A stretch of DNA of 64,000 nucleotides from Blastocatellia bacterium (lineage in GTDB: Bacteria > Acidobacteriota > Blastocatellia > RBC074): positions 15,682 through 79,681 of the forward strand of contig DAOLKO010000010.1 of assembly GCA_035331565.1 (NCBI GenBank). The letters run 5' to 3'. How positions within the stretch are numbered: position 1 is the stretch's first letter; each line of letters begins with the position of its first letter. The notes below the pieces were generated by a model. That model saw nothing but the letters and a program-made list of their open reading frames with translations, was not told the DNA's origin and searched no databases. The translations under genes and the position numbers were made by a program. Shown piece after piece: positions 28,356 to 51,099 of the stretch.

Positions 28356-29039
28356 TTAACGAGAAGCCGGCACTCGTAAAAGCTGACGAATGGTTGCGCC
28401 GTTTTGGCCGGGGTGGGCTTCGAGCAAACACGCGGCGAAGCCTGTCAGGTGCGCCACAGCGAAGCTGATGCCGTTCAGATTGCGTTCGGGCGGCACGCCG
28501 GGAATCGGGCGCGCATAGCCTGAAGCCAGAAAACATTGTTTGGCTTCATCCCAGCGATACGCTTCGCGCGGACAATCCCAATCCAGCGACACGCCCAACA
28601 CCGACGGCAAACAGCCGGGCAGAGAATCCGCGCCGTTGATGTCGCGCGCGGCGACGACCGGCAAGTTTTCCGCTTGCGCCAACACGCGCTCGAACTTTTC
28701 CCGATGATTCAAATTCAGCGTCCCCAGGCTCAGGTTGACGAGGTGCATTTGATTCGCCGCGCACCATTCCAGCGCGCGCAAGATCGTTTCAATGTTGGTG
28801 GTCAGCGCGCGGTCAAAGACTTTGACGGCGTAAAGCTCTGCGTCCGGCGCTTTTTCGCGGATGGCTCCGGCGACAGCCGTGCCGTGGCCGATGAAATCCA
28901 GATACTGTTCTTCGGTTCCGCCGGGCGTGATGCGCATGCCGCCGGCCACGCCGCCGACGTGCGGATGAACTGGATTGACGCCACTGTCAATGATGGCGAC
29001 GCGGACGCCGCGCCCGGTCAGTGTTGGAGTTGCAGGCAT
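28356..29039 (-). CDS. qhpE: Small subtilisin-like serine protease, candidate QhpE (leader peptidase for the QHNDH gamma subunit).
   Basis: Catalytic triad contexts IIDSGV (Asp), GHGTAVAG (His) and GISFAVAHLTG (Ser) in only 227 aa. It overlaps the ABC exporter gene by 22 nt. Confidence 0.6.
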   Translation of the reverse strand: MPATPTLTGRGVRVAIIDSGVNPVHPHVGGVAGGMRITPGGTEEQYLDFIGHGTAVAGAIREKAPDAELYAVKVFDRALTTNIETILRALEWCAANQMHLVNLSLGTLNLNHREKFERVLAQAENLPVVAARDINGADSLPGCLPSVLGVSLDWDCPREAYRWDEAKQCFLASGYARPIPGVPPERNLNGISFAVAHLTGFAACLLEAHPGQNGATIRQLLRVPASR

Positions 29040-30703
29040 TCGTGGATTTTTCCGTTTTCCAGCGTCAGCACTTGATCGGCGATGGCGGCCAGCGCCGGAC
29101 GATGCGTGATGATGATTGCCGTGCGACCGCGCAGAGATTGCGACAGCGTCGCAGCCAGGCTTTGTTCGGTTGCAGCGTCGAGCGCGGCGCTCGGTTCGTC
29201 CAGCACCAGCACCGCCGGTTCGCGCAACAACGCGCGCGCAATGGCCAGTCGCTGGCGTTCGCCCACGGACAAAGCCAAACCGCGTTCGCCGACTTGCGTG
29301 TCGTAACCTTCCGGCAAAGCGGCGATGAATGCATCAAGCGCGGCGGCTTGCGCGGCGGCGGCGATTTTTTCGGGCGGCACGTCGGGCAAACCGTAAGCGA
29401 TGTTTTCGGCCAGGCCGGCGTTGAAAAGGATCGGCGTTTGATCCACCAGCAAAACGTGGCGGCGCACATCATCCAACCGCAAGTCGCGCAAATCGTGCCC
29501 GTCCAGTTTGACCGCGCCCGCCTGCGGATCGAACAACCGCACCATCAAATCGGCGATGGTGGATTTGCCAGCGCCGCTGCCGCCTGTGATGGCTGTGATG
29601 CTGCCTGCCGCGATGGTGAAACTTATGTCGTCCAGCACAAGGGCTTCGCGGTCGTGGCGAAAGCTGACGCGGTCGAAACGGATTTCACCGCGCGCTTCGT
29701 TGAGCGGCGCGGCGTGCGGACTTTCAACCACGTCTGGCGGAGTGTCGAGCAATTCAAAGACACGCCGCAACGAAACGCGCGCCGTCGTCAGGTTCGTGTA
29801 CAAACTCATCAGGCTTTGCACGGGCGCAAGCAGCCGCTGGTGATAAGCCATAAACGCCACCAGCGCGCCGATGCTGAGCGATCCTTTGATGACCAGCGCG
29901 CCGCCGTACAAAAACACCAGCGCTGTGGAAAGCGTCAGCATTGTGCCGGGCAGCGCGCCTGCCAAATACGAGGTCAGTTGCATCGCCAGCAAGGCATCAA
30001 TAAAGCCGCGATTGCGCGCGCGAAAACGCGCGACTTCGTGCGATTCGGCACGCGAAGTCACAATCAGCCGCATGCCTTGTAAGGATTCGATCAGAAAGCT
30101 GCCGATGTCCGCGCTGCGTTCGCGCAAGGTTTTGACCTGCCCGGTCAAACGTTGCTGGTAATGCCTGAGCGCCAGTACGCTGGGCGGAACCAGCACGATG
30201 CTGAGCAAAAACAAGCGCCAGTTCAGCCAAAGCATGATGGCGACGCTGCCGACGAAAAAGACCACATTAGCCAACACTGCCAGCAAACTGTCAGCGGCGA
30301 CGCGCTGGATTTCGGCGATGTCGTTGTTCAGGCGCGAAACGATGTCGCCCAGTCTGGTGCGCGCATAAAAGCGCGGCGAGAGCGTTTGCAGATGGCGGTA
30401 GAGCGCCAAGCGCATATCGAACAGCACTTCGGCGGAAACGGAGACGTAGCGGTAGCTGGACAGAATGTTCAGCGCAAATCCGAAGACAGTCACGACAACC
30501 ATCAGCGCGGCAACCTGCCACAGCGCGTTGAGATTGCGCCGCAACAAGGCTTCGTCAATCAGGAGTTTGGTGATGTAAGGCTGCGCCAGTCCGAGCAGCG
30601 TCGAGATCAGGCTGATGAACAAAACCAGCGTCAGCCGTTTCCAGTAAGGCGTGAGGTAAGCGAAAGCGCGGCGGTATTCGTTGAGCGAGGCGGGTTGTTT
30701 CAC
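29018..30703 (-). CDS. qhpF: ABC exporter with fused TMD and NBD, candidate QhpF.
   Basis: Six-TM N-terminal domain. Walker A is GGSGAGKST, signature LSVGERQRLAIARAL, Walker B LVLDEPSAALD. Confidence 0.75.
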   Translation of the reverse strand: MKQPASLNEYRRAFAYLTPYWKRLTLVLFISLISTLLGLAQPYITKLLIDEALLRRNLNALWQVAALMVVVTVFGFALNILSSYRYVSVSAEVLFDMRLALYRHLQTLSPRFYARTRLGDIVSRLNNDIAEIQRVAADSLLAVLANVVFFVGSVAIMLWLNWRLFLLSIVLVPPSVLALRHYQQRLTGQVKTLRERSADIGSFLIESLQGMRLIVTSRAESHEVARFRARNRGFIDALLAMQLTSYLAGALPGTMLTLSTALVFLYGGALVIKGSLSIGALVAFMAYHQRLLAPVQSLMSLYTNLTTARVSLRRVFELLDTPPDVVESPHAAPLNEARGEIRFDRVSFRHDREALVLDDISFTIAAGSITAITGGSGAGKSTIADLMVRLFDPQAGAVKLDGHDLRDLRLDDVRRHVLLVDQTPILFNAGLAENIAYGLPDVPPEKIAAAAQAAALDAFIAALPEGYDTQVGERGLALSVGERQRLAIARALLREPAVLVLDEPSAALDAATEQSLAATLSQSLRGRTAIIITHRPALAAIADQVLTLENGKIHECLQLQH

Positions 30704-30706: not shown

Positions 30707-31717
30707 TCAAGCTTGGACTTTGTAATAGCACATAAACCCCGACGCGCAATGTTCGGGCGATTCGCGCAGGGATTTGGCGCGTTCGATGACGTGTAGCTTC
30801 GGAACGCCGTTGCGCGTGCGTTCGACGATGTCGCGCACCATTCGGACGCTCGCCATTTTCTTGAACGGCGCGGCTTCGCGTCCGACGATTTTCAGCGAAG
30901 CCACGCCGATGCGTTGCAAGTCTGGAATGGCGCACAAACCGCACGGGCCGTAAGGTAAACCTTTGGCCGTTGCGCCGCAGCCGTTGCCATTCAAGTACCA
31001 AACCCATTCGCGGTAATCGGTCAGGTTGCGCCGTAGCCAGTTGTGGCGGCGGCTCGTGAAGGTTTTGCCCGCCCATTCAAACCGCGTGTCCATTTCCGAC
31101 AATCCTGTGCAAAACGCGCCGACCGTGTGGTGATGCGTCGTCGAACAAAAGCCTTCTTCAAACGCGCAGCCGTCGTTGAGCATGAAGACTTCGATTTCAA
31201 CTTCGTCGCGGGTGTCGCGCGTGATGGTTTCGATTTCGGCCAGCGTCAGGCTGCGCGGCAGAATGACGCGCCGAACGCCAAAGTTCAGCAGAAAGCGCAC
31301 GGCTTCAGTGTTGAGCGTGGCGGCAACGGAGCTGACGTGCAGGTCGCAGGCGAGTTTGGCTTCGCTCAGCCGCAACAGCAGATTGATGTCGGTGACGATC
31401 AGTGCATCCACGCCGATTTCTTCAGAGAGTTTACGCGCCAGTTCCATCACCAGCGGCATCTGCTCGGCGGTGTAAAACGGGGAGTTGAGCGTGATGAAAA
31501 CTGGAAGCTTGCAGGAGTGCGCGTCATCCACCAGCCGTTTCAAATCGGCGTAAGTTTCCAGACTGCCGCCTTTGGGACTGCGGCGATTGAGCCAGACCGC
31601 GCCGGTGTATTTTTCCATCCACTCGCGCGGGACAATGCCGCAGAACAACTCTTCCGCGCCGGCGGCGGCCAGCATTTCCAGTTCTTCGTGCGCAGCGATG
31701 GGAGCCAGGATTTTCAT
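30707..31717 (-). CDS. U32-family [4Fe-4S] protein, UbiU/RlhA-like. A candidate O2-independent hydroxylase.
   Basis: MKILAPIAAHEELEMLAAAGAEELFCG N-terminus, U32 signature-like EVFMLNDGCAFEEGFCS, and additional Cys at CTGL and CGLC. It lies 3 nt upstream of qhpF. Confidence 0.65.
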   Translation of the reverse strand: MKILAPIAAHEELEMLAAAGAEELFCGIVPREWMEKYTGAVWLNRRSPKGGSLETYADLKRLVDDAHSCKLPVFITLNSPFYTAEQMPLVMELARKLSEEIGVDALIVTDINLLLRLSEAKLACDLHVSSVAATLNTEAVRFLLNFGVRRVILPRSLTLAEIETITRDTRDEVEIEVFMLNDGCAFEEGFCSTTHHHTVGAFCTGLSEMDTRFEWAGKTFTSRRHNWLRRNLTDYREWVWYLNGNGCGATAKGLPYGPCGLCAIPDLQRIGVASLKIVGREAAPFKKMASVRMVRDIVERTRNGVPKLHVIERAKSLRESPEHCASGFMCYYKVQA

Positions 31718-31725
31718 GGCAGGGG

Positions 31726-32358
31726 TTAGTCGAGAATGCCTGCGAGTTTGAGCGTCAGCCCGTCGAACAACAGTTCGCCGGTGATGGTCTTGGGATGATT
31801 GAGTACTTTGGCGCGCGCGCCGGGACGATAAACGTGAGCTTTCTTTTCCAGCGGATCAATCAGCCAGCCGAGTTGCGCGCCGTTTTCCAGATATTCTTCC
31901 ATCTTCTCTTTGAGCATATCGAGATCATCGCTTTCAGAGCGTAACTCGACGACAAAGTCGGGGCAGATGGGCGCAAATTTCTTGCGCAATTTTTTGGGAA
32001 TGGCTTCCCAACGCTCACGCGCGATCCAGGAAAGGTCGGGCGAGCGTTTCGCGCCATTGGGCAGCGTGAACCCCGTGGCGGAATCAAAGCCGACGCCCGT
32101 TCCGTCCGTTTTGGCCCAAATGCCAAACTCGACGGCGAGATTGAAGTTCCGATTCCCGCCTTCACTGCCCGTCGGCATCATGATTATCATTTGCCCCTCC
32201 TTGGTCATCTCGATCCGCAGTTCATTGTTGTTGGCGCAGAACTCGAAGAATTCATCGTCGGTCACTTTTTTGCGAAGCGGCCCAAGGCGAATAACCATTG
32301 TGTCCAAATCAGGCGGAGCGGAGCGCGGAGTAATTTGCGGCGATAGGCGTGTACTCAT
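31726..32358 (-). CDS. Uma2-family (DUF820) PD-(D/E)xK endonuclease-like protein.
   Basis: 210-aa product. The pattern IEMTKEGQMIIMMPTGSEGGNRNFNLAVEFGIW...PDFVVELRSESDD is typical of Uma2. The real start is ATG 32358; the longer listed ORF overlaps the upstream gene. Confidence 0.6.
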   Translation of the reverse strand: MSTRLSPQITPRSAPPDLDTMVIRLGPLRKKVTDDEFFEFCANNNELRIEMTKEGQMIIMMPTGSEGGNRNFNLAVEFGIWAKTDGTGVGFDSATGFTLPNGAKRSPDLSWIARERWEAIPKKLRKKFAPICPDFVVELRSESDDLDMLKEKMEEYLENGAQLGWLIDPLEKKAHVYRPGARAKVLNHPKTITGELLFDGLTLKLAGILD

Positions 32359-32369
32359 AATTGATCCTC

Positions 32370-33296
32370 TCAGATCGCTATCATCGGCAGGCGTGGTTGA
32401 AAAATCAATCTTGCGATTCGGCCTTGCGCGGCTTGTGCCGGCAATGCGCGCAGCATTGGTTCGCTGTGGTGATAAAAATATGAATTGCCTTTCAGATAAA
32501 ACTTCTGGTCGCGATTGCCGAAGGGAGAATTGGTGTACTGGTATTCCAGCAAATGCGTCTGGCATTCGTGACGGCAAGGCGCGCCGGGCTGGAACTTGTC
32601 TGCTTTGTGGTAGTGCAAGCCCGCCGCCATGCAAACGCGGCTGGTGCTGATAAATCCGAACGGCAGGTAAATAGCGATGGCCAGGCCACCCACGTTCAGA
32701 TCGTTGCCTTGCGGCAGATTGTCCATTTCGATCATTTCGACGCCGAACCGCCTGAGCATCATCGCGTAACTGGCGTTGTCCAGGTTGGAGCCTTGCAGCA
32801 CGTTCAAGGCGGAAGCAGGCGCGGGCGCAGCGGCATACATCGTCGTCACGCGCGGGTCGCGCAAGGATTTGTTCAGCAAACGGCCTTGCACGGGGCGCAG
32901 CGTCGGATAGTCCCGGCGCAATAAATTCAGCACGCCCCAATCGTTGAAGACGACTTCATTGCCGGCCTGCTCAGCCAGCGCATCAAACAGGGGGCGCAAA
33001 GCGGTGATGCCTTCATTGCCGACATAAGGCGTCAATAACGTAAAAGCCAGATTGCGCGATTGTGCAGCGGCGAGCGCCTGCCGGAGCGAAGCGGCTGACG
33101 GCAACAGGTGTTCGCAAAATTCGTTTCCGAAAACGCAACCGTCGAAGAAGACTTCGCCGTGATGTTCCTGAATAACTTTTGCGGCGAGTGCGACCAATGG
33201 TTGGATGATGGCACTGGCTTCAAACGTAGCCAATCGGGCGAGGCTGAGTTCGCCTTGCAAATCGTCAGCGCCTTTGATGTGCAATCGCCATTGCAT
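32370..33296 (-). CDS. Second U32-family protein, UbiV-like (one N-terminal and three C-terminal Cys).
   Basis: VFFDGCVFGNEFC ... NDWGVLNLL ... SRVCMAAGLHYHKADKFQPGAPCRHEC parallels the UbiV 4-Cys cluster arrangement. Confidence 0.5.
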   Translation of the reverse strand: MQWRLHIKGADDLQGELSLARLATFEASAIIQPLVALAAKVIQEHHGEVFFDGCVFGNEFCEHLLPSAASLRQALAAAQSRNLAFTLLTPYVGNEGITALRPLFDALAEQAGNEVVFNDWGVLNLLRRDYPTLRPVQGRLLNKSLRDPRVTTMYAAAPAPASALNVLQGSNLDNASYAMMLRRFGVEMIEMDNLPQGNDLNVGGLAIAIYLPFGFISTSRVCMAAGLHYHKADKFQPGAPCRHECQTHLLEYQYTNSPFGNRDQKFYLKGNSYFYHHSEPMLRALPAQAAQGRIARLIFQPRLPMIAI

Positions 33297-33301: not shown

Positions 33302-34423
33302 TTACTGCCGAGGTTTGACGACCAGCAGGTTCGTCGTCATATCGCCGTCAAAGGTGATGACGCGCTGTTGTTTGAAGGTTTGCGCGTCGTAACATTCGAT
33401 GGTCGGGCCTGCGCCGTGGATGTAAAGCTGTTTCCCGTCGCCGGAGAGCGTGAACGAAAACCGCGAGCGACTTTCAAATTCGTGTTTGTTGACCAGTTTG
33501 CGCGCCGCCAGATCGAACACCCAAAACTCCGTGCGCCGCGTCGCGCCGTTGCCGTTGAAGGCCACGGTGTAGCCGGTCTTGCGATCCGGCGAAAGTTGCA
33601 GGCCGGTCATGCCTGTGGTGGCCGGGCCAATCGGCGTGAAATCCAGCTTGCGCGTATTCAGGTCTAACCGCGCGAGGCCGAAAATGCGCCGCCGCACCAC
33701 CGGGTCAGTCGCGTTGAAGACCGAAGTCACTATGCTGGGGTCTTCGTTGGGATCGCCGCCCGCGCCGATCCGCACAGGGAAAATGCCCGGATGCTGCGGT
33801 TTGGACAGTTCAATCTTGTCTATTTGCTTGAACTCTTTGAGGTCGAAAATCAGCACGTCTTCCTTGAACACGTAAAGCAGCTTGCCGTCGGGTGAAACGC
33901 GGTAGCCGGCCTGAAAGCCGAAGGGCGAATCGTATTCTTTGGGAAAGTCGAAAGTCTTGGTGATTTTCTTTTGCGCCAGATCAATCACGGCGAATTTTGG
34001 TTTTTCGATTTCAAAGCGATCAATCTTTTTCACCGCGGCAGTGATCGTGGCGTATAGGAATTGATCGGTCGGGTCGGGCGCAAACCCATTCATACGGACG
34101 ATGCGTTCGCCTTCGTTGAGCGTGAACGAATTGACGACTTTGCGCGTGGCCAAATCAATCACTTCGATGCCGTTGTTCCAGGTGCTGACGTAGATTTTCT
34201 TTTTGTCGTAAGACAGCGTCAGCCCTTGCGGCGTGCCGGTGTTGAGTTGAATCCGGTCAACGACTTTGCCTTGCGCTTCGTCAATCACCAGCACCGTGCG
34301 CTGCCAAACGCCGGTGTAAAGCATCGCGCCCGCCGCCGCTTTTGTTTGCGCGAATGCAGCGGCAGCCAACAGCAGAATGAAAGCAACAGCCAATGTGAAT
34401 CGCATATCGTTTCCCTCGTTCAT
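33302..34423 (-). CDS. qhpB: QHNDH beta subunit (7-bladed beta-propeller), candidate QhpB.
   Basis: Signal peptide, ~350-aa repeat-rich beta-strand protein. Its position in the operon matches qhpB. Confidence 0.6.
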   Translation of the reverse strand: MNEGNDMRFTLAVAFILLLAAAAFAQTKAAAGAMLYTGVWQRTVLVIDEAQGKVVDRIQLNTGTPQGLTLSYDKKKIYVSTWNNGIEVIDLATRKVVNSFTLNEGERIVRMNGFAPDPTDQFLYATITAAVKKIDRFEIEKPKFAVIDLAQKKITKTFDFPKEYDSPFGFQAGYRVSPDGKLLYVFKEDVLIFDLKEFKQIDKIELSKPQHPGIFPVRIGAGGDPNEDPSIVTSVFNATDPVVRRRIFGLARLDLNTRKLDFTPIGPATTGMTGLQLSPDRKTGYTVAFNGNGATRRTEFWVFDLAARKLVNKHEFESRSRFSFTLSGDGKQLYIHGAGPTIECYDAQTFKQQRVITFDGDMTTNLLVVKPRQ

Positions 34424-34441: not shown

Positions 34442-34984
34442 TCAGAAGTCAAAACGATAAGCCACCCAATAATCAGAATGGCTTCGACAAAAATCTCTGA
34501 AATACTCAACGCGCGCTATCATCTCTTTTCTCATCACACGCAAATCATCCGGGTGTTCGTGTATTGATTTGAGCATACAATCCACGTGTTCGGATGTGAG
34601 CAAGAGAAAGTCACATTCCTCTTCCCGGAAATACTTGCCGCAAGAAATAGATCCCGGTGGGTCAACTCCTGAAAACACGTGAGCGTGACATCCCCAGTAA
34701 TCAAGATGGACGGTTTCTTCGCCTAAGCAGAAATCCAACGCTAGCTGTTTTTTGAAATCGTTCAGTTTCGTCTCAGCAAGCAATTCCTCAACCGCTTTCG
34801 TTACGGAAGTCCCATTTTGGCTCATCACAAAGACTAATGAACTATGGAGAGTTGCACTAGCTTGATCCTTAGCTTCCAAGACATCAATGTTGTCTTCTAA
34901 AAAGCGCGTGAGCGTTGGCCGATTCATCTTAAGAATTCGGTCAGAAAGCCGCTTGTCGTAAAGTTGTATCCAGTCAGTTCCCAT
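34442..34984 (-). CDS. Low-GC Cys/His-rich 180-aa protein of unknown function, inserted between qhpC and qhpB.
   Basis: The DNA is conspicuously AT-rich relative to its flanks. Motifs include HLDYWGCHAHVF, CGKYFREEECDF and HVDCMLKSIHEHPDD. Confidence 0.5.
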   Translation of the reverse strand: MGTDWIQLYDKRLSDRILKMNRPTLTRFLEDNIDVLEAKDQASATLHSSLVFVMSQNGTSVTKAVEELLAETKLNDFKKQLALDFCLGEETVHLDYWGCHAHVFSGVDPPGSISCGKYFREEECDFLLLTSEHVDCMLKSIHEHPDDLRVMRKEMIARVEYFRDFCRSHSDYWVAYRFDF

Positions 34985-35000: not shown

Positions 35001-35345
35001 TCACGGAAAGACTAGATCAATGTTGCGCCAGTCTTTAGTTGCGCTGGCGCACTTGCTCGTCCAGTCGGGATAGTTGTTCAGATGATCCGGCACTTGCGCG
35101 GGCCAGAAACAACTGATGTAGCAGTCATAAAGATCGCGTTCGACAGGCTGGCACAAACCCGCCGTCCCGCCTGTGGAATCCACTTCCCAGCCGGGCGAAA
35201 AGACCAGCGAACAACCCATTGGATAATGCGGGCGAGTTGGCGCGGGCGGGCCGCCTTGTTGCAGCGCAACGATGTCGCCGAATTCAGCGGCCACGTATTC
35301 TTCAATCCGCACTGCTTTGCGGTTGATTGCCCTGATGTGTTTCAT
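35001..35345 (-). CDS. qhpC: QHNDH gamma-subunit precursor (CTQ- and thioether-bearing small subunit), candidate QhpC.
   Basis: 115-aa product. The leader MKHIRAINRKAVRIEEYVAAEF is followed by a Cys/Asp/Glu/Trp-rich core GCSLVFSPGWEVDSTGGTAGLCQPVERDLYDCYISCFWPAQ. Its ATG overlaps the qhpD stop (ATGA). An AAGGAAA RBS is present. Confidence 0.65.
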   Translation of the reverse strand: MKHIRAINRKAVRIEEYVAAEFGDIVALQQGGPPAPTRPHYPMGCSLVFSPGWEVDSTGGTAGLCQPVERDLYDCYISCFWPAQVPDHLNNYPDWTSKCASATKDWRNIDLVFP

Positions 35346-36772
35346 AGCGTTTTCCTTTCGTCGAAGTGAGCCAAAAATTGCGGATTGCGCGTTGCCAGTT
35401 CGCCATAGACGCGCAAACAAACGTCCGTCCAACCGCGAATCCAATCGCAGTAATGCAAATTTGCCTGCCCCGTGTCGCCGTAGCGCACGAAGGCTTCGTG
35501 GTAACAGCCGCCCGAACAAACAGGCCGCGCCCAACAGGTCAGACATTCGGGTTTGCGGTTGATGTGGCCGCGTTCCAGAAAATCCGCTTGTTGCGCACGG
35601 TCAATGCCGGTTTGGATTGTGCCGAGTTTGTGCGCGTCGGCGTCCACGAACCGATGGCAGGGCGCGATGTCGCCCGAAGGGCTGACGCCCAGCAAGCCCA
35701 AGCCCGCGCCGCACGGATGCGCTTTGCTGATGCCCGCGTGCAATTCGGCCAGCGTGTCGCTGACGTTTGAAAAGCCGTGATGTTCATTGCGCAGCGCGCA
35801 TTCCAGATATTCTTCCGCCAGCGCGGTGAACTGTTCCAGAATGCTGTTTAAGCCGTTTGTGCCGATGGCGTAAAGCCGCACAGGCGAAGTCGTGACCGGC
35901 GCGAAACCGACTTCGTGAAAGCCCAGTTCGTCTTTCAAGTGGCGATAGATTTTCTTCACGTCCACGACTTGCGAAGTCAGCGTGACGCGCGCGGCGATGG
36001 GGCGCGTTCGGTGTTTGGCCAGCAAGGCTTTGATCTTCGGCGCGATCATTTCGTAACTGCCTTGCCCGTTGGAAAACACGCGCAACTGGTCGTTCATTTC
36101 CTGCGGCCCGTCAATGCTGATCGTCACGCCGACGTGTTGTTCGGCCAGATATTCGATCACCGGTTCGGTCAGCAAAGTCGCGTTCGTCGTCAGGCTGAAA
36201 TCAATGTATTTGCCCGCCGCGTGAGCCTGTTGCCGGGCGTAATCAATCGTGGCGCGAACGACTTTGAAGTTCATCAAAGTTTCGCCGCCGAAAAAGGTCA
36301 GATGCACTGCACGACGTCCGGGCGATTGCGCCAACAGGAAGTCCACGGCGGCGAAAGCCGTCGCTTCGTCCATGAACTTCGTCTTGCCTTCGGGCATGGC
36401 CAAGCGATCTTCGCCGAATTCGTAGCAGTACTTGCACGAAAGATTGCATTGATTGGTAACGTTGAGTACCAGCGTTTGCAGCGGGAAAGGCATCGGCGCG
36501 GGCTGCACTTCGTCGGCGTAACCGTGGCCGTTGGTGAGGGCGCGCGACTGATACAACTCGGCGACGGTTTCTTCGGCTTCGACGTAATTGAAGCCTTGCG
36601 TGGTTAGATCGGCGACCAAATCCAGGCGTTCGCGTTCGCCCGCGCGCAAGGTTTGGATGACGGCGGACGAAAGTTCATCGAGCGCGAAAATCGCGCCGCT
36701 CGGCACCAGGTAAAGATAGTCTTGCCCGCCGCCGCTGAACTCGTGAAATTCGCCGAGCCGCAATGTCGTCAT
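35342..36772 (-). CDS. qhpD: Radical SAM/SPASM peptide maturase, candidate QhpD (thioether-forming).
   Basis: CNLSCKYC CxxxCxxC motif, C-terminal SPASM cysteines CHRF...CLTCWARPVCSGGCYHE. The start is taken at ATG 36772 (MTTLRLGEF), just after the qhpA stop. Confidence 0.75.
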   Translation of the reverse strand: MTTLRLGEFHEFSGGGQDYLYLVPSGAIFALDELSSAVIQTLRAGERERLDLVADLTTQGFNYVEAEETVAELYQSRALTNGHGYADEVQPAPMPFPLQTLVLNVTNQCNLSCKYCYEFGEDRLAMPEGKTKFMDEATAFAAVDFLLAQSPGRRAVHLTFFGGETLMNFKVVRATIDYARQQAHAAGKYIDFSLTTNATLLTEPVIEYLAEQHVGVTISIDGPQEMNDQLRVFSNGQGSYEMIAPKIKALLAKHRTRPIAARVTLTSQVVDVKKIYRHLKDELGFHEVGFAPVTTSPVRLYAIGTNGLNSILEQFTALAEEYLECALRNEHHGFSNVSDTLAELHAGISKAHPCGAGLGLLGVSPSGDIAPCHRFVDADAHKLGTIQTGIDRAQQADFLERGHINRKPECLTCWARPVCSGGCYHEAFVRYGDTGQANLHYCDWIRGWTDVCLRVYGELATRNPQFLAHFDERKTL

Positions 36773-38550
36773 CGCGCTACCTCCGGTTGATCCCATTTCA
36801 TATAAAGCGGAACTGTGACGACTAAGTAAGACCGCGCCGTTAATGGCTTGGCGTCTTTATCCTGCTGCCTGGTGTCCTGCTGTTTAATGGTCGCCACGAT
36901 CCACAGGTCGCCGTAGTTGTTGCGCGAATGTTTCCGCTGCGGATTGGGGCCTTCAATCGCCGGCGTGAACAATCCCGTCGCGCTCAGCTTGCCGGAATAG
37001 TCTTTGTCGTCGTCGTCGTAAATCGCGGGAAATTCTTCGACCGTCCATTCAGCGTCCATCGCGCCGAGCGGCAAATCGTCAGCCGTTTGCGGTTTGTTGT
37101 CGGGGCCGCGGAAATAGCCTATGGCCTCGAACTGCCAATAGCCTTTGGGGTATTTCACGCCGCCCAACCGCGCCAGGGCGTTATCAGGATTCACTTTGAT
37201 GTAATCCACTTTGTCGTAAATCGTCACCGCGCCGGGCACGAAGGCGCGCCGAACAGCCAAGTCGCGTTTGCCGAGCGGCGCTTTTTCTTCAATGTCCACG
37301 GCGACGGTGAGCGCATCGCGCCCAACGTTGACGATGCGCGTGACTTTGACGCCGGGGCCGAAATCAATGTCTTCGGGTTTCAAGTCCGACGGGAAGTTCG
37401 CGCCGAAGATTTTCACCTGTTCATTGGCGGCGGGCGCTTTGAGCGCGAAACGATCCAAGCCCAGTGCAATCGTTCCGGTGTCAACGCGCCGCAGCGTGAG
37501 ATCAATGCCGAACTCTTCGTAATCGCCCCAGAACCAGCGACCGTCCATTTGCGACTGGTCGCGCGAAACCAGCATGACTTCGCGCATTTCGCGCGGATCG
37601 TCGCCGGGATCGCCGTTGCCGTTTTCGCGCGCGCCGCCTTGCGAACGCCCGCGCCAACTGTAGCCGGTGTAAACCAAACTGCGCCCTGTGCGCGTGAAGG
37701 TCTTGCCGCTTTTGACGAAAGTCAGTTGCGTGCGCGTCGTGAATTCGTCTTCTGCCGCGCCGGGTTCAATCGTCATTTCGCCGTAAACGCGACCTTTGCC
37801 GACTTGATAGCCGCTGACCAGCCAACGCCCGGCAAGTTTGGGCGTGCGCGAATTCGCCCGCCACGCAGCCCATTCCGGCGTGTGCAGCGGAAAGGTTTTG
37901 GCCAAAAACTCCACGGCGCGATCCGCTGGATGGCGCGTGTCTGTTCCCGGCGGCGGAGGTGGCGCATCAGGCGGCGGCGGGAAGCGGCGGAAGCCTTGAA
38001 ATTCGACGACGGGGAAATAGCCAACGTGCATGTTGACCAGCAAATCCCACTCTTCTTTCGAGCGGCGCTGCGACTGCACGCGTCCGTAGGTGTGGCAGAT
38101 CGTGCAGGTGTTACGCAGGTTTTCATCGGGAACGGTTTCGTCAAGCACGCGATGCTCGACTTCATAAAACGCAGGCCGCGCTTCTTCCGGTGCCAAGCCG
38201 TGGTTCGCACTCAGGTAACGGACAATCTGACGCGCTTCCTCCGGCGACAACGTCAGACCGTTCAAGCGAACCATGCGTTTGATGATTTGTTGCCAGCCTT
38301 CGGGTGTAGTGCGCTCCCACGAAATGCGCGTCAGATTGCCTTTGTCATCGGCCTTGTGACAGGTCGAACATTTGGCAATGACAAGTTGGTTGGTGACGGG
38401 AATGCCCTCCTCACCGGGCGGTTTGGCGGGCGGCGCGGCTTGTGGCGTTTGTGCCGGCTGCGTTTGTGATTGTTGAGTTTGGGAATAAACCGTGAAACCT
38501 ACGGGCAGCAGCAACGTGCCCATCAAGACGAACAGCTTGAGCAAGCGCAT
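36769..38550 (-). CDS. qhpA: QHNDH alpha subunit (dihaem cytochrome c N-domain plus beta-sandwich domains), candidate QhpA.
   Basis: Signal peptide and two CxxCH motifs (CSTCH, CTICH) in the first ~170 aa, followed by a ~400-aa beta-rich region. Confidence 0.7.
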   Translation of the reverse strand: MRLLKLFVLMGTLLLPVGFTVYSQTQQSQTQPAQTPQAAPPAKPPGEEGIPVTNQLVIAKCSTCHKADDKGNLTRISWERTTPEGWQQIIKRMVRLNGLTLSPEEARQIVRYLSANHGLAPEEARPAFYEVEHRVLDETVPDENLRNTCTICHTYGRVQSQRRSKEEWDLLVNMHVGYFPVVEFQGFRRFPPPPDAPPPPPGTDTRHPADRAVEFLAKTFPLHTPEWAAWRANSRTPKLAGRWLVSGYQVGKGRVYGEMTIEPGAAEDEFTTRTQLTFVKSGKTFTRTGRSLVYTGYSWRGRSQGGARENGNGDPGDDPREMREVMLVSRDQSQMDGRWFWGDYEEFGIDLTLRRVDTGTIALGLDRFALKAPAANEQVKIFGANFPSDLKPEDIDFGPGVKVTRIVNVGRDALTVAVDIEEKAPLGKRDLAVRRAFVPGAVTIYDKVDYIKVNPDNALARLGGVKYPKGYWQFEAIGYFRGPDNKPQTADDLPLGAMDAEWTVEEFPAIYDDDDKDYSGKLSATGLFTPAIEGPNPQRKHSRNNYGDLWIVATIKQQDTRQQDKDAKPLTARSYLVVTVPLYMKWDQPEVAR

Positions 38551-38726
38551 GGGGACAGCCTCCTCTTCTACTGCCGGCAGTCGGCATCGAACGAACGTGG
38601 TATATCAATAGTTCTGAGAGTGATAGTCGCCGCACGATGATATGCATTCACCCTCAAAAGGCAATTGCGCCAAGCAGCTTTTACAAGAAAGCAGCGATAG
38701 CTCTATGTTGTTGTGAGTGGTAAAAG

Positions 38727-38770
38727 AATGGGCTTGGCTGGACTCGAACCAGCGGCCTACTGCTTAGGAG
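38727..38770. repeat. attL-like 44-nt direct repeat, identical to the 3' half of tRNA-Arg at 51024-51067.
   Basis: aatgggcttggctggactcgaaccagcggcctactgcttaggag is present at both sites. The sequences diverge immediately afterwards. Confidence 0.8.
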
Positions 38771-38937
38771 TCTAATGCCGCCCATTTTCCTGACCTGTCT
38801 GAACATTTCTTACCTCTTCAAAAGCCTGTAAATACTGCATTTTTCTTGCCTGCATTATTCACTATCTCTCCCGACTTGTCATCTGATTGTGTTACGATGT
38901 GTGTCACAAGACAGATTAAACTTTCGGGAGAAGCATC

Positions 38938-40068
38938 ATGCCAAGACAACGGACTGGTTACGTTTGGTACTGGAAAGAACGCAAATCCTGGTATGCCCGC
39001 CTGACCTTCACGGATGCCAGCGGCAAACGGCGCAATGTCTGCCGCTCCGTCGAAAACAAAACCGAAGGCAACAAACTGCTCAAACAATTGATCCGGGATT
39101 TGGAAGATAACGGCGAGAAAGCGTTGGATTCCGAAAAGCTGACCTTTCGCCAACTCGCCAAGCTTTACTCCGACCGCAAACTTATCGCCGCTGAATATCA
39201 AGGTGACACGAAAGTGCGCGGATTGCGCTCGCATAAAAACCAGCAAGGGTATCTGAAAACACTGGTTGACCATTTCGGCGGGCTGCGCGTGCGCGCCATC
39301 ACGCACAGCGACCTGGAAGATTACCGAGCCAAACGATTGCAAACCATAACCCGACGAGGCGCGCAACTCAGCGCGGCCAGCGTCAACCGGGAATTAAGCC
39401 TGATGCGCGCGGTTTTGAATTTTGCCCGGCGACAAGGCTGGCTCAGCCGAAATCCTTTTGATGCGGGCGATCCGGTTATCAAACCCGCCGACGAAGTGAA
39501 GCGCGAGCGCGTGTTGACGTTTGAAGAAGAAGGGCGGTTGTTACTGGCTTGCGCTGCACCGCGCGAACATTTGCGCCCGATGCTGATTTTCGCGCTTGAT
39601 ACCGGCTTGCGGAAATCCGAAATGCTGGCTTTGCGCTGGGCCGACGTTGACCTTGAATCCGGGATGATTCGCGCGCGTAGCTCGACCACCAAGACGCGCA
39701 AAGCCCGAACTATAGGTATGACTTCGCGCCTGAAAGCCGAGCTTGAGCGAATGCGAGAGTCGGCGGGCGATGATCCTGAATCGCGCATCTTCAACCAGAA
39801 AGACATGAAGCGCTCCTTTGCGACGGCTTGCGAACTGGCCGGTGTTGAAAACCTGCACTGGCACGACCTGCGCCACACCGCGACAACGCGAATGGTTGAA
39901 GTCGGCCTTGCGCCGATGATTGTCATGAAGCTGACCGGCCATACTCAGATGGCAACCTTTGCCCGCTACGTCAACGCCAACGATGAAGCGGCGACCAAAG
40001 GCGCGGAAGCTCTCGACGCTTACCGGCAAAACGCTCTCGGCGAAAGCACGCCGGAGAGAATCAACTGA
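38938..40068 (+). CDS. int: Tyrosine-type site-specific integrase.
   Basis: C-terminal HDLRHTATTRMVEVG...ATFARYVN carries the R-H-R-Y catalytic signature. It is adjacent to the att repeat. Confidence 0.85.
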   Translation: MPRQRTGYVWYWKERKSWYARLTFTDASGKRRNVCRSVENKTEGNKLLKQLIRDLEDNGEKALDSEKLTFRQLAKLYSDRKLIAAEYQGDTKVRGLRSHKNQQGYLKTLVDHFGGLRVRAITHSDLEDYRAKRLQTITRRGAQLSAASVNRELSLMRAVLNFARRQGWLSRNPFDAGDPVIKPADEVKRERVLTFEEEGRLLLACAAPREHLRPMLIFALDTGLRKSEMLALRWADVDLESGMIRARSSTTKTRKARTIGMTSRLKAELERMRESAGDDPESRIFNQKDMKRSFATACELAGVENLHWHDLRHTATTRMVEVGLAPMIVMKLTGHTQMATFARYVNANDEAATKGAEALDAYRQNALGESTPERIN

Positions 40069-40175
40069 AACGGCTTCGGCTCGCCTTACGCCTGATTAGC
40101 TACCCGGCGGACAGCGGTGAAACCTTCGCTCCGTTGGAGAGCCGAAAACACGAAGGACACCTGGAAGGGGAGACA

Positions 40176-41450
40176 ATGCAAAATGAGCAAGAGTTTCGTC
40201 AGATCATAGAAAGGATTGATGAAGTGACGCGGGCGCTTTTGCAAGTAAGGGATTACAAGGCGGAGGCGATTGACCTTAATGGTGCAGACGCTCCTTTGAA
40301 ACTTCTAGCGCGAACTTGGCGGGACACTCAGTTACCAAGTCAGTCTGATGAAAAGCTCGCCAATATGATACGGCAGCGGTTAGAGGAAACATTATCTCCA
40401 ATCTTGTGGATTGCTACGGGACAAATAGTTTCTGGTGCGCTCGAATACGCTACGCGCGAAACTGGGGCAACCGTAATGCCCACCTTTGATGGACTTTCAA
40501 GGGTGGGCATAGCTGAGCAACCATATTCCGAAGATGAAGAAGAGGTTTGGTTGATTGGTTTAGCGGAGAGAATACGAATAAAAGGAACGCTTCAGGTGAG
40601 CCTAAATTGGGGAGAGATTGAATCTATTCTTGATGATTTTTTTGGCTCGTCTCTTTCAGCGTGTAAAACTGAGCAAGAAGCAAAAACGGCTTGGAATAGC
40701 TTTCTCAAGAAGGAGCAAAAGCACCTCAAAAAAAGAATGGGGGATTCACCGGTAGAAAAAATCGTAGAGACCAACCGGAAGGTTGAAATGCTGACGGATA
40801 AACAAAGAGAGCAGATGCGAAGCGATCTGGTAAAACTCGCTTCGCAAAACTTCAAATTAAACATAGATCACGTTATTCGTTGTGCTATTGCGGCCAATCT
40901 GTTCTTGAGCCTGGTGTATTGGGAATACGCTTTTGATCGTGAAAAAGGAAGAGCCGAGAAGGAAGTTCAGCAATCACTGCCCGGAGTAGAAGAACTAAGA
41001 GACATAATAGGTAAGAGATTGAATGACTGGCTTATTCAACCGCTTCCAAAAAGACCGCGCCTAGGTAAACAAGCAAAAGCTGATTTAAGCCAACTGCGCC
41101 AGTTTTACGAGGAAGTTATTGGGGATTGGCGTGATGCCTTTAGCTTCTGTCGTGAGGCTCTCAATTCTCGTTCAGCAACCCGCCGTGCAACTTGGAAAGA
41201 AGACCTCAAAAAATACTATCCCAGTCTGCGAGATTACGACGATTTGATTGAGCGGCTACAGCCCATAGAGAACTGGCCAGAGCAGGTAGCTGCGAAATGT
41301 TCAGAGCAGGGGGGCGAGGATAAGCCTGAAGACATCGCTTACGAACATGCTGCACGACTATGCGACGCAGCCAATTACACGTACAAGCTGTCTTCGCTTA
41401 TTGAGGAATACCGCAAGCAAGGGCGACAAAAAAAAGAAGAAAAAGAATGA
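40176..41450 (+). CDS. Island-encoded hypothetical protein (~425 aa, acidic, AT-richer).
   Basis: ORF with a GGAGA RBS before ATG 40176. No recognisable domain. Confidence 0.45.
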   Translation: MQNEQEFRQIIERIDEVTRALLQVRDYKAEAIDLNGADAPLKLLARTWRDTQLPSQSDEKLANMIRQRLEETLSPILWIATGQIVSGALEYATRETGATVMPTFDGLSRVGIAEQPYSEDEEEVWLIGLAERIRIKGTLQVSLNWGEIESILDDFFGSSLSACKTEQEAKTAWNSFLKKEQKHLKKRMGDSPVEKIVETNRKVEMLTDKQREQMRSDLVKLASQNFKLNIDHVIRCAIAANLFLSLVYWEYAFDREKGRAEKEVQQSLPGVEELRDIIGKRLNDWLIQPLPKRPRLGKQAKADLSQLRQFYEEVIGDWRDAFSFCREALNSRSATRRATWKEDLKKYYPSLRDYDDLIERLQPIENWPEQVAAKCSEQGGEDKPEDIAYEHAARLCDAANYTYKLSSLIEEYRKQGRQKKEEKE

Positions 41451-41665
41451 AAATTTTGCACTCGACCAACACCACACAATTTAGAAAAAAAAGAATTGAG
41501 ACTTCTGAAAAGCTTATCAGTTTGGCCTAAATTGCAGGTTGAGGTAACTCAAGACGATCTGACAAAACAGTGGGCAAGAGCCGTTCGATTTCTGAGGCCG
41601 CGCGGCACTTGCCCTTGACCTAAACCCGCCGCTTTTGGCGGCAAAGCACAGGAGTTTTTTAAATT

Positions 41666-41896
41666 ATGTCCCAAGTGTCTTTTGAAGCCAACACCAGCCC
41701 AAAACAACCAATCCTCGAAACCGCTGTCTACGGGCGCGACGAGGCAATCGCTATCACCGGCTTTTCGCTCTCGACGCTGATCCGCGCCGAAGAGAAAGGA
41801 AAGCTGCGAGGTCGCTACGAAGGCCGTCGCCGATTTTATTTCGGGCGCGATCTGCTGCGCTGGCTGGGAGCCTGCGAGGAAGGAGGTGCGGAGTGA
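41666..41896 (+). CDS. AlpA/excisionase-like small HTH DNA-binding protein.
   Basis: 76-aa product. DEAIAITGFSLSTLIRAEEKGKL is an HTH resembling phage AlpA/Xis. Confidence 0.55.
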   Translation: MSQVSFEANTSPKQPILETAVYGRDEAIAITGFSLSTLIRAEEKGKLRGRYEGRRRFYFGRDLLRWLGACEEGGAE

Positions 41897-42195
41897 AGTC
41901 AAAAAACCAAAAGCCGCCAGCGGCGGGAATCGCTGACGGCTCTCGAAATCGAACTAAAAATTACGAGCCGGATTCTGCCACGCTGCGCCGACAAACGGCA
42001 ACAACAAATTTGCCGGAGTGCCCGTGTCCCGTATGCGCGCGCAGTTATCGTTACGCATGGGGCTGGTTGATGGTGCTGCCGACGGCGCGAGTCGTTGACC
42101 TGTGCGCGTATTGCACGCGCACTTTGCGCTACGGCTCAGCGTCGGAGCGTCAGGCAATTGCCGACGCGATTGCAACGCGGGAGGTGGCACTATGA
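41893..42195 (+). CDS. Small Cys-rich protein (putative zinc-ribbon).
   Basis: CPCPVC...CAYCTR is a four-Cys arrangement. Its stop overlaps the primase ATG (ATGA). Confidence 0.35.
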   Translation: MKSKNQKPPAAGIADGSRNRTKNYEPDSATLRRQTATTNLPECPCPVCARSYRYAWGWLMVLPTARVVDLCAYCTRTLRYGSASERQAIADAIATREVAL

Positions 42196-44801: not shown

Positions 44802-44805
44802 GGGT

Positions 44806-45065
44806 CTAGTGGAGAAAACCCGACAAACCCGACATTTGGGCAAAAACGGTTTCAATGTCGGGTTTTCGTTGTCGGGTTTTTCGGAGAATCTGGCGAAAAT
44901 GCCGAAAATGCGGCCACAGAAACTAAGTCCCTTCAATAGTTTACCAATCAATGTCGGGTTTGTCGGGTTTTCTCCACATAAGAGCGGTCTGGGATAAATT
45001 CCAGGCGTTCAATGTCGGGTAGGCTTCAAAAAGCCGACACCAAAACCCGACAAAAACCGACAAGG
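44806..45065. repeat. Iteron-like block with at least 10 copies of the CCGACA/TGTCGGG heptamer in both orientations.
   Basis: Representative copies are aaacccgacaaacccgacattt, caatgtcgggttttcgttgtcgggttttt, caatgtcgggtttgtcgggtttt, caatgtcgggtaggc and gccgacaccaaaacccgacaaaaaccgacaagg. Confidence 0.6.
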
Positions 45066-45082
45066 AATAGGGAGCGGGCAAA

Positions 45083-45493
45083 ATGGGAAACGAGATTTTG
45101 ATTGAAATTGAGAGGCTTTCCACAAAGCAACAACGAGCGATTGAAGCGTTGTTGACCGAGCCAACAACGCGCGCAGCGGCGGCTGCGGCAGAGGTCTCCG
45201 AAGCAACAATCTGGCGCTGGCTGGCGGAGCCGGAATTTTCTATTGCGTATCGTGCGGCGCGTGGGCGCTTGCTGGAATCCACGTTGACGGCGTTGCAATC
45301 GGCCAGCGTGGATGCCGTGGTTTGTTTGCGCGAAATTCTGAACGACAAAACTGCGCAGGTTTCCGCTCGCGTCAGCGCGGCCAAGTCGGTTCTGGAACTC
45401 GGATTGAAGGCGCGCGAAGTTCTGGAAGTTGAAGAGCGGCTGGCTTACCTGGAAAAGGCGTTGGAACTCAAAAACGCAAAGAGGAGTGCATGA
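45083..45493 (+). CDS. HTH-domain protein (regulator or terminase-small-subunit-like).
   Basis: AAAAAEVSEATIWRWL HTH followed by a coiled-coil C-terminus. Confidence 0.4.
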   Translation: MGNEILIEIERLSTKQQRAIEALLTEPTTRAAAAAAEVSEATIWRWLAEPEFSIAYRAARGRLLESTLTALQSASVDAVVCLREILNDKTAQVSARVSAAKSVLELGLKAREVLEVEERLAYLEKALELKNAKRSA

Positions 45494-45993
45494 CGACTGC
45501 AAGAAGACTTTCGGCGATGGAGCCGCTGATTGAACCCGAACGAGCATTGCTTCGCCATAACCGGGCAATTCTGCTGTCGGCAATTCCCGAAGTGATGGCC
45601 AAGCTCGGAAAGACCGAAGAAGAGGCGCGGCGGCTTTTGTTGCTACTCTGGTCGCCTGAAGAAGCGGCGCTGGCGGCGGATGATTGGGAAATCAATCCGC
45701 TGGCGCTGGACTTGCTCAAGAAGCTGAATCAGCCCAACGGACGGCAGAAGCTCATCGAATCGGGCTTGCAACGGGGAGCGGATGCGTTTGGCCTGAGTGT
45801 TGAAGATTTGATTTGTCTGGTTTGCCTTGACCCGCGTAACTCTCTGGCGTCCAAGCTGGAACTGGTCAAAATCGCCAACGAACGGAAGATGCCCGCAATC
45901 CTTTTGAAGCTTCACGGCGAAAATCCGGTTGAACGGATAGACCGCCTTGCAGATAGTGTGGCTAATCACGTTGTAGATGACCTGACTGGATGA
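45490..45993 (+). CDS. Island hypothetical protein.
   Basis: ORF coupled to the upstream gene by an ATGA overlap. Confidence 0.35.
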   Translation: MTTARRLSAMEPLIEPERALLRHNRAILLSAIPEVMAKLGKTEEEARRLLLLLWSPEEAALAADDWEINPLALDLLKKLNQPNGRQKLIESGLQRGADAFGLSVEDLICLVCLDPRNSLASKLELVKIANERKMPAILLKLHGENPVERIDRLADSVANHVVDDLTG

Positions 45994-46100
45994 CGAATCG
46001 CCGGGCACGACCAGCCCCGCCAAACTGTAGAATTTTTCTTGCCTCAGCCCGCGATGCGGCATAGACTCCGCGCGTCATCAAACGATGCTCCCCCCGCGTC

Positions 46101-47027: not shown

Positions 47028-47030
47028 AAC

Positions 47031-47849
47031 TTGTTCAGAGGGTTCGCTCTAATGATCAATATGGATACTAAGCAGCTAAAAACTATGTTTTGGAGCTTGG
47101 CATTAGGCGCATGCGGTTTCTGGATTTGGCTTAACCAAGGCGGAAATCCTATGCCTGATTTCTATTTACTAGATGATGCGGTTATTGCCAAAGGGTATAT
47201 TGTTGAAATTACTGAGAGTGCTGGTGAAGAGGGCGACAGTACTTTTACCGCCGAATATCAATTTAAGCTTCCTGACGGTCGAGAGTTAACTAATCGAACA
47301 GACAAGTTTGATGAAGAAATCATCGAACAAAAAATGCCATATCCCATTGAAATTGAATATTACAAAGCTAATCCAGAAATCAACAGGATCAATGGAACTG
47401 GAAGTCGCACATTTACAGAGTGGCTTTGGCGAAGTTTAGGAGGAGGAGTTGTTTTGCTCGCATTATGCTTAAGTCCAAGCATCTGGTTATTCCGATGCGG
47501 TTGGCAGGACATGAGACAAAAACGCGAAATTAAAAGCCGGAAATTGAGAAAAGCTCAGAAGAAAGCGGCCAAGCGACTGGTGAAAGGAGCGGCGGAGGCT
47601 GCGCAGCTAACCTCTATACAGCAGGAAGCCTCACAGATGGCCGATACGCCGACCAACATTCAGATACCGGATCGGGAGCAATTTCCGCCGGGTATTCTGG
47701 GGGATAGTATGTATCGGATGTCTGCTGACCGTGTGCGAAAGTTGTTGGCGAGGGAGGCCAAAAGGGCGGCGAAGGCTACGAAGCCTACGCAACAAGTTAC
47801 TCAAGCGGATGCAGATGAGACAACGTCAAATAACTTCAAAACCAGGTAA
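47031..47849 (+). CDS. AT-rich membrane protein with a DUF3592-like topology (TM, beta-domain, TM, then a Lys/Ala-rich tail).
   Basis: TM1 WSLALGACGFWIW, then a ~100-aa soluble domain, then TM2 LGGGVVLLALCL, then a basic tail. Confidence 0.4.
   Translation: MFRGFALMINMDTKQLKTMFWSLALGACGFWIWLNQGGNPMPDFYLLDDAVIAKGYIVEITESAGEEGDSTFTAEYQFKLPDGRELTNRTDKFDEEIIEQKMPYPIEIEYYKANPEINRINGTGSRTFTEWLWRSLGGGVVLLALCLSPSIWLFRCGWQDMRQKREIKSRKLRKAQKKAAKRLVKGAAEAAQLTSIQQEASQMADTPTNIQIPDREQFPPGILGDSMYRMSADRVRKLLAREAKRAAKATKPTQQVTQADADETTSNNFKTR

Positions 47850-51025: not shown

Positions 51026-51099
<74 letters not shown>

Follow-up and report, generated by a model that had tools for sequence, protein, structure and literature searches.

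A QhpC precursor with a conserved fifth cysteine in a variant qhp operon of a Blastocatellia bacterium

A 114-codon open reading frame (ORF) follows a radical S-adenosylmethionine (SAM) gene on the minus strand of a 64,000-nucleotide stretch from a Blastocatellia bacterium (contig DAOLKO010000010.1 of GenBank assembly GCA_035331565.1, positions 15,682 to 79,681; the whole stretch is called the window below). The locus raises three questions: whether the small ORF encodes QhpC, the γ subunit precursor of quinohemoprotein amine dehydrogenase (QHNDH), as the original prediction held; what its fifth Cys is for; and which enzyme would hydroxylate its Trp. By sequence comparison, the ORF is assigned to QhpC, the precursor of the ~9-kDa subunit. 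Taken as a whole, the locus is very probably best explained as a QhpC precursor encoded in a qhp operon of Blastocatellia (Acidobacteriota). The qhp system found here is a variant: its γ subunit has five Cys and an extended N-terminal arm, its β subunit is divergent, and a U32-type module stands where the flavin monooxygenase would be.

The gene and its parts are given below. Residues are those of the window QhpC, and mature numbering is obtained by subtracting 38; CTQ denotes cysteine tryptophylquinone.

35001..35345, minus strand: qhpC, 114-residue precursor of the QHNDH γ subunit (PF08992, NF037958, alignment to 1jmx_G and 1jju_C)
35085..35213, minus strand: cross-link core, eight residues aligned one-to-one with 1jmx_G and 1jju_C, codons verified
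Cys45 (mature Cys7) and Glu54 (Glu16), minus strand: thioether pair, spacing Cys7-x8-Glu16 matched
Cys65 (mature Cys27) and Asp71 (Asp33), minus strand: thioether pair, spacing Cys27-x5-Asp33 matched
Cys79 (mature Cys41) and Asp87 (Asp49), minus strand: thioether pair, spacing Cys41-x7-Asp49 matched
Cys75 (mature Cys37) and Trp81 (Trp43), minus strand: CTQ pair, aligned with the solved chains
35049..35051, minus strand: fifth Cys, Cys99 (mature position 61), where both solved structures have Ala
35265..35345, minus strand: predicted leader, residues 1-27 (MKHIRAINRKAVRIEEYVAAEFGDIVA), by homology and from the putative QhpE cleavage between Ala27 and Leu28
35214..35264, minus strand: N-terminal arm of the predicted mature subunit, residues 28-44 (LQQGGPPAPTRPHYPMG), from alignments A1 and A6

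The candidate precursor is recognized by both family models far above their cut-offs. Pfam PF08992 matches with E=1.3e-36 and 124.9 bits (cut-off 25), and the NCBIfam equivalog NF037958 matches with E=9.7e-40 and 134.7 bits (cut-off 50), covering model positions 1-104 of 104. The matches in the PDB are the γ subunits of Pseudomonas putida (1jmx_G, E=7.6e-25) and Paracoccus denitrificans (1jju_C, E=1.9e-23). Residues 43-114 of the window QhpC correspond to residues 5-76 of both solved subunits with zero gaps, an ungapped alignment of 72 residues at ~51% identity (alignment A1; PDB 1JMX/1JMZ chain G and 1JJU/1PBY chain C). The γ subunit of the characterized enzyme carries three Cys-to-Asp/Glu thioethers in addition to the Cys37-Trp43 CTQ (PMC7876137). 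All eight cross-link positions are common to the window QhpC and the solved subunits, as is the C-terminal DW...VFP. The Cys-to-Asp/Glu and Cys/Trp register expected from the Paracoccus and Pseudomonas proteins is thereby matched exactly, and the window protein can be aligned with the known γ subunits throughout this region. Among the 120 closest database homologues the eight residues are invariant, save one Glu16 substitution, and Cys37 and Trp43 are invariant in 123 aligned sequences. No evidence against the QhpC identity was found in these comparisons. GenBank entry HMV50683.1, along with others, is 100% identical to the window protein and is named 'quinohemoprotein amine dehydrogenase subunit gamma [Blastocatellia bacterium]'. 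The qhpC gene itself is thus ordinary, a textbook member of a curated family that is already named in GenBank.

The features claimed for the start of the gene hold once the small ORF is placed on the minus strand, a correction to the original prediction. The ORF runs from 35345 to 35001, with the ATG at 35345..35343 and the stop codon at 35003..35001. Bases 35345..35342 of the minus strand read ATGA, and the TGA is the stop codon of the radical SAM gene qhpD (36772..35342), so that the overlap is real. The Shine-Dalgarno sequence AAGGAAA (35357..35351) precedes the ATG by 5 nt (GACGAAAGGAAAACGCT-ATG) and falls within the 3' end of qhpD; the context GAAAGGAA(A/G)GCGATATGA upstream of qhpC is found again in relatives. 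The proposed translational coupling to qhpD is borne out by the 4-nt overlap. A second ATGA overlap is present at the other end of qhpD, with qhpA (36772..36769), and qhpA, qhpD and qhpC are translationally coupled by these 4-nt overlaps. A longer in-frame ORF from 35546 (181 residues) was rejected as the qhpC start, because the ATG at 35345 agrees with the Shine-Dalgarno sequence, with the homologues and with the family model alike.

The translation contains 5 Cys, 4 Trp and 13 Asp plus Glu, in agreement with the predicted Trp and many acidic residues. A leader and a core are both present, but the two strings quoted for them are not contiguous, as 15 residues (QQGGPPAPTRPHYPM) lie between. 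Likewise, the protein does have five Cys, but only four of them fall in the quoted core; the fifth is Cys99 in the tail (KCASATKDW). The N-terminus is leader-like, but by homology the leader would end at Ala27 and not at Leu28. The solved mature chains start with MNALVGC and MSAVAGC, which corresponds to residue 29 of the classical precursor (P0159: ...LEVTA/METVVGC), and a 28-residue leader has been described for the characterized system (PMC7876137). In alignment A1, Ala27-Leu28 of the window protein falls on the classical Ala-Met (A28/M29 site). QhpE cleavage is predicted between Ala27 and Leu28 because the starts of the solved chains and alignment A1 map there. In addition, the D-x-V-A-L-Q motif of the leader is conserved in relatives.

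Cleavage at this site would leave 17 residues before the first Cys, as compared with 6 in the solved subunits. The GGPPAPT part of this arm is variable in sequence and length, and R-P-H-x-P-x-G-C is invariant in the clade (P39, H40, P42 and G44). A second cleavage site between Arg38 and Pro39, nearer the core, may be used; it would restore the six-residue spacing to the first Cys.

The fifth Cys is no peculiarity of this locus. Of the 120 closest homologues, 119 carry Cys61. The same holds for 80 of 81 genomic loci, the window among them, and the last locus has an alignment gap there. Full-length representatives of 50%-identity clusters have it in 21 of 26 cases, and representatives whose C-terminal tail is intact in about 29 of 36; those with Cys61 include sequences with 36-50% identity to the query. 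Three distant lineages with inspected operons carry it as well. Elsewhere, position 61 is Ala, Lys or Leu (the classical proteobacterial type), with Tyr also in other lineages. As judged from these alignments, the fifth Cys appears to be lineage-wide, extending through most non-proteobacterial lineages. It is real and strongly conserved and, therefore, not noise. The crystallized four-Cys γ subunits are apparently the minority type, most sequence lineages carrying the conserved fifth Cys. A literature search found no paper discussing the fifth Cys of QhpC.

Two divergent QhpC representatives (P0212 and P0266) have seven Cys each. Of the extra Cys, one is ~11 residues past Cys61 (KDWQKLCFVPD and SDWRTLCTVPD) and one is near the N-terminal bridge. 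The Cys content of the QhpC family varies more than the two crystal structures would lead one to expect.

A possible partner of Cys61 within the subunit is Asp67. Residues Asp105-Trp106 (mature 67-68), six residues past Cys61, are invariant in every lineage, and the Cys61-Asp67 spacing (Cys-x5-Asp) equals that of the known Cys27-Asp33 bridge. In this arrangement, QhpD would link Cys99 to the methylene carbon of Asp105 as a fourth thioether, giving a four-bridge γ subunit; this would be the extra crosslink hinted at in the original prediction. The retention of Cys61 in both close homologues and divergent lineages is in favor of such a bridge, as is the lack of a conserved Cys partner for a disulfide in QhpA and QhpB; thiols without a partner are uncommon in periplasmic proteins. 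However, Asp67-Trp68 is equally invariant in classical QhpCs with Ala or Lys at position 61, indicating that the conservation of Asp67 does not depend on the Cys or on a bridge. Moreover, inspection of the aligned representatives by eye revealed no residue co-varying with Cys61. We consider the fourth thioether unlikely. An AlphaFold2 model of QhpC (62-sequence alignment) has a predicted local distance difference test score (pLDDT) of 46.8 and a predicted TM-score (pTM) of 0.20; it is unusable for the Cys61/Asp67 contact and was not used. A poor model is expected here because the fold is held together by cross-links.

An inter-subunit disulfide from the fifth Cys to QhpA or QhpB was considered as well, and the window QhpB does have exactly one Cys, Cys344. 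However, only 6 of 67 relatives have Cys344, though all of them keep the γ-subunit Cys61, and QhpA conserves only its four haem-binding (CXXCH) Cys. This disulfide was rejected as highly improbable. A Cys pair occurs at positions corresponding to 298 and 318 of the window QhpB in about 28 of the 67 relatives; the window QhpB is without it.

Most simply, the fifth Cys would be an unlinked, conserved thiol with a buried packing, redox or transient biogenesis role, alongside the canonical three thioethers and CTQ. Every canonical bridge residue is intact and in register. In addition, position 61 tolerates Ala, Lys, Tyr and Leu elsewhere with the rest of the tail conserved, suggesting that the fold needs no bridge there. 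On the other side, near-absolute conservation at 35-50% identity exceeds that of a usual neutral packing residue. We give the unlinked thiol slightly better than an even chance; what is left after it and the fourth thioether falls to other states.

The surrounding cluster, in which all genes are on the minus strand, is composed as follows.

36769..38550, minus strand: qhpA, di-haem α subunit (TIGR03908, 513.2 bits, cut-off 274; four QHNDH α-subunit Pfam domains)
35342..36772, minus strand: qhpD, radical SAM/SPASM thioether maturase (TIGR03906 equivalog, 590.9 bits, cut-off 453)
34442..34984, minus strand: orf180, hypothetical 180-residue gene between qhpC and qhpB, no family match
33302..34405, minus strand: qhpB, divergent β-propeller β subunit (best NCBIfam match TIGR03907 QH_beta)
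32370..33296, minus strand: orf308 ('qhpX'), four invariant Cys, predicted TIM barrel, no family match
31726..32358, minus strand: Uma2-family endonuclease gene, between orf308 and the U32 gene (PF05685, E=4.6e-41)
30707..31717, minus strand: U32-family UbiU-like Fe-S protein ('qhpY'), 336 residues (PF01136, 118.1 bits, cut-off 22.4)
29018..30703, minus strand: qhpF, ATP-binding cassette (ABC) exporter (ABC_membrane and ABC_tran domains), position conserved in 54 of 80 loci
28356..29039, minus strand: qhpE, subtilisin-like leader protease (NF049966 QhpE, 158.7 bits, just below the cut-off of 165; Peptidase_S8)

The qhpD product has 476 residues from the ATG at 36772, the longest ORF beginning at 36796. 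For comparison we used 80 related loci from species-representative genomes, all of them close Acidobacteriota-type relatives; the content of proteobacterial operons was taken from the literature (PMC7876137). Roughly 600 genomes gave a match to the QhpC pattern. The same gene order is found in about 75 of the 80 loci, as well as on contigs of the metagenome-assembled genomes (MAGs) GCA_035330305.1 and GCA_035333365.1. The order qhpA-D-C-B is nearly universal, and qhpB comes directly after qhpC in 79 of the 80.

With respect to qhpG, a defining feature, the operon differs from the canonical one. In characterized systems, the flavin monooxygenase QhpG dihydroxylates Trp43 with O2 and is described as essential (PMC7876137); the canonical operon is qhpABCDEFGR (Nakai et al. 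2014; Oozeki et al. 2021, PMC7876137), and all of its genes have been reported to be necessary (PMC7876137). Among the scanned proteins of the cluster and its neighbours, none has a flavin adenine dinucleotide (FAD)-monooxygenase domain. A tblastn search of the 64-kb window with 20 QhpG-like proteins of at least 300 residues gave nothing better than E=0.018. A QhpG-like gene is present in 24 of the 80 related loci, and the pair of orf308 and the U32 gene is present in 13, always between qhpB and qhpF. The two never occur in the same locus (0 loci). Their positions are as follows.

30707-33296 of the window, minus strand: orf308+U32 pair, between qhpB and qhpF
11513-13468 of locus L001, 11325-13147 of L082, 7397-9300 of L084 and 3142-5009 of L086: orf308+U32 pair in other loci
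5775-6740 of locus L049, minus strand, with further copies in L024, L026, L035 and 20 other loci: short QhpG-like flavoprotein (NCBIfam best match)

The QhpG-like flavoprotein of acidobacterial qhp loci has about 320-380 residues (typically about 340). Its best NCBIfam match is QhpG at 53-69 bits (cut-off 240), followed by the tryptophylquinone maturases LodB and GoxB. This short protein is probably a truncated or divergent type of QhpG that is missed by current models.

Three distant QhpC lineages, with 45-54% identity to a divergent representative, share the order qhpA-D-C-B-X-U32-F, with qhpE next where the contig reaches. One of these lineages is a Vulcanimicrobiota MAG with a 985-kb contig. 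In all three, the X protein (274-296 residues) has no Pfam match and the U32 protein is a Peptidase_U32 member; no QhpG-like gene was found in the three loci. Genomes with the pair include GCA_035330305.1, GCA_035333365.1, GCA_050250895.1 and the assembly to which the 3.3-Mb contig JAXLQP010000001.1 belongs. The recurrence of the pair in the qhp operons of distant lineages, never with QhpG-like genes, suggests O2-independent hydroxylation of the Trp. The QhpC core is almost invariant across U32-type and QhpG-type operons, and no residue separates the two types.

U32 proteins (UbiU/UbiV, RlhA and TrhP) have been proposed to be O2-independent, prephenate-dependent hydroxylases of aromatic rings, and most U32 subfamilies are uncharacterized (PMC10990095, PMC6747719). 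The U32 protein of the window matches E. coli UbiU over 268 columns in hhalign (probability 98.4%, E=6e-15). In NCBIfam, too, UbiU (NF047963) ranks first for this protein, but at 89.5 bits, below the equivalog cut-off of 440, indicating that it is UbiU-like and not UbiU. The cluster ligands of UbiU are arranged as CX6CX16CX38C and those of UbiV as CXnCX12CX3C (PMC6747719). In particular, residues C184, C191 and C203 of the U32 protein align with C169, C176 and C193 of UbiU, and C184-x6-C191-x11-C203-x43-C247 is invariant in 10 relatives. The fourth Cys is shifted or ambiguous in distant members, where a conserved GPCGLC is the alternative.

The orf308 family has 397 database members; the listed ones are without a name or called 'hypothetical', and Pfam domains are absent from all of them. 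Four Cys of the orf308 product (C61, C222, C241 and C245) are invariant down to 35% identity, with the pattern CXnCX18CX3C, and its model is a TIM barrel (pLDDT 80.7, pTM 0.83). The orf308 product is UbiV-like in pattern and fold class, though it is not demonstrably a UbiV homologue. On these grounds, we propose as a serious but tentative possibility that the pair takes the place of QhpG and carries out the hydroxylation of Trp81 independently of O2. More tentative still is the wider picture that, in this and many non-proteobacterial qhp operons, QhpG has been replaced by an O2-independent two-gene module and the fifth Cys could additionally carry a fourth thioether.

Maturation would then proceed as follows. 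The leader of ~27 residues would dock the QhpC peptide on the radical SAM/SPASM enzyme QhpD, which would form the Cys45-Glu54, Cys65-Asp71 and Cys79-Asp87 thioethers in the cytoplasm. Trp81 would be dihydroxylated, perhaps by the orf308+U32 pair using the prephenate-dependent chemistry proposed for U32 hydroxylases. QhpE would cut off the leader, probably between Ala27 and Leu28, and QhpF would export the peptide, in line with the role of QhpF in exporting the processed γ subunit (PMC7876137). The Cys75-Trp81 link and the quinone would be finished in the periplasm on assembly with QhpA and QhpB.

Several points weigh against this picture. Blastocatellia are mostly aerobes, and we know of no U32 protein that acts on a protein substrate. 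The orf308 fold match is to TIM barrels in general. In hhalign, the orf308 product has a marginal match to the U32 family and to its partner (E=0.003-0.005, probability 7-11%) and none of significance to E. coli UbiV (E=0.12-0.24, probability 0.3-0.5%). The mutual exclusion of the pair and the QhpG-like gene has a Fisher p=0.008, a statistic that ignores shared ancestry. Neither gene type is present within 10 kb in 43 of the 80 related loci; therefore, the hydroxylase can be encoded elsewhere, and this genome may hold a distant qhpG. QhpB (TIGR03907, 73.9 bits, cut-off 223; 1jmx_B, E=1.2e-4) and QhpE both fall below their equivalog cut-offs, and the enzyme is therefore divergent. The maturation chemistry (thioethers, CTQ and leader cleavage) is carried over wholly by homology from the Paracoccus and Pseudomonas systems (PMC7876137), and direct hydroxylase activity of U32 proteins in vitro has not been shown (PMC10990095).

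The pair could thus serve another purpose, as a peptidase, a chaperone of QhpC or QhpD, or an unrelated hitch-hiker, with QhpG encoded elsewhere. An unlinked hydroxylase would be common, given the many related operons with neither gene nearby, U32 is formally a peptidase family, and orf308 is without significant similarity to UbiV. However, a dedicated leader protease, QhpE, is already present, and the pair occupies the same place in the operons of distant lineages, never with a QhpG-like gene. Furthermore, the characterized U32 members with this Cys motif are tied to hydroxylation and not to proteolysis (PMC6747719, PMC10990095). We give such another role an even chance.

If the pair does hydroxylate Trp81 without O2, QhpC would be the first protein to serve as substrate for a U32 hydroxylase, and the range of these enzymes would extend from lipids and RNA to proteins. 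The pair would also provide an O2-independent route to a tryptophylquinone cofactor. The known tryptophylquinone cofactors are, to our knowledge, all believed to require O2 or H2O2 as the source of their oxygen atoms. A literature search found no paper linking U32 or UbiU with QHNDH or tryptophylquinone.

Two further genes interrupt the operon. The product of orf180 has no Pfam, NCBIfam or PHROG match. The gene occurs in 0 of the 80 related loci, is called only in near-identical MAG contigs, and has a GC content of 45-50% as compared with 54-60% in the flanks; it was rejected as a part of the system and looks like a recent foreign insertion. The Uma2 gene (putative restriction endonuclease) is at the same place in only 1 of the 80 loci (L003). 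Given these counts, and the low GC of orf180, both are taken as strain-specific insertions. In the distant locus L082, a Uma2 gene is located upstream of the qhp operon, at a distance of a few kb.

Directly upstream of qhpA is a 12.3-kb integrated element (window 38724-51099). Its direct repeat of 47 nt, with copies at 38724-38770 and 51021-51067, corresponds to the 3' part of tRNA-Arg(CCT), which lies at 51026-51099. Within the element are genes for a tyrosine integrase (38938-40068) and a Prim-Pol/DUF927 primase-like protein (42102-44801), along with several unknown ORFs. Downstream of qhpE, on the minus strand, are genes for a 930-residue DUF5695 protein (1304 bits; 25412-28204) and a 985-residue PSCyt1/PSCyt2/PSD1 'planctomycete cytochrome' protein (21738-24695). 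These two are probably unrelated neighbours because they do not adjoin qhp in related loci.

Compared with the solved γ subunits of Pseudomonas and Paracoccus, the window QhpC has Cys and not Ala at position 61, Phe and not Trp at position 42 (next to the CTQ Trp), Arg and not Ala at position 32, and ~11 extra residues from the leader junction to the first Cys. Its β subunit partner is only remotely similar to the solved β subunits (E about 1e-4). Common to the window and both systems are the predicted leader junction V-x-A followed by M or L and the position of qhpC directly after qhpD. As in the canonical qhp operon, qhpA, D, C, B, F and E are closely packed on one strand, with overlaps of qhpA/qhpD, qhpD/qhpC and qhpF/qhpE. 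Unlike in the canonical operon, no qhpG was found in the 64 kb, orf308 and the U32 gene stand between qhpB and qhpF, and orf180 and Uma2 are inserted.

The orf308+U32 pair resembles UbiU-UbiV in that it is formed by two adjacent genes, one of them for a clear UbiU homologue with three of the four cluster Cys aligned. Like UbiV, the orf308 product has a Cys far upstream of a CX18CX3C, and the expected substrate is an aromatic ring to be hydroxylated. Unlike UbiU-UbiV, however, the U32 protein scores far below the UbiU cut-off (89.5 vs 440 bits), the orf308 product is without detectable UbiV homology, the partner comes first in the gene order (ubiU precedes ubiV in E. coli), and the proposed substrate is a peptidyl Trp, not a prenylated phenol.

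After its own family, the next best matches of QhpD are the maturases of SCIFF (TIGR03974) and ranthipeptides (PapB), at 277 and 273 bits. These radical SAM/SPASM systems share the same logic, in which a leader guides the formation of thioethers from Cys to side-chain carbons on a small peptide rich in Cys, Asp and Glu. In contrast to SCIFF and ranthipeptides, the product of the qhp system is no free peptide but an enzyme subunit with a quinone cofactor, and QhpD passes its own cut-off and fails theirs.

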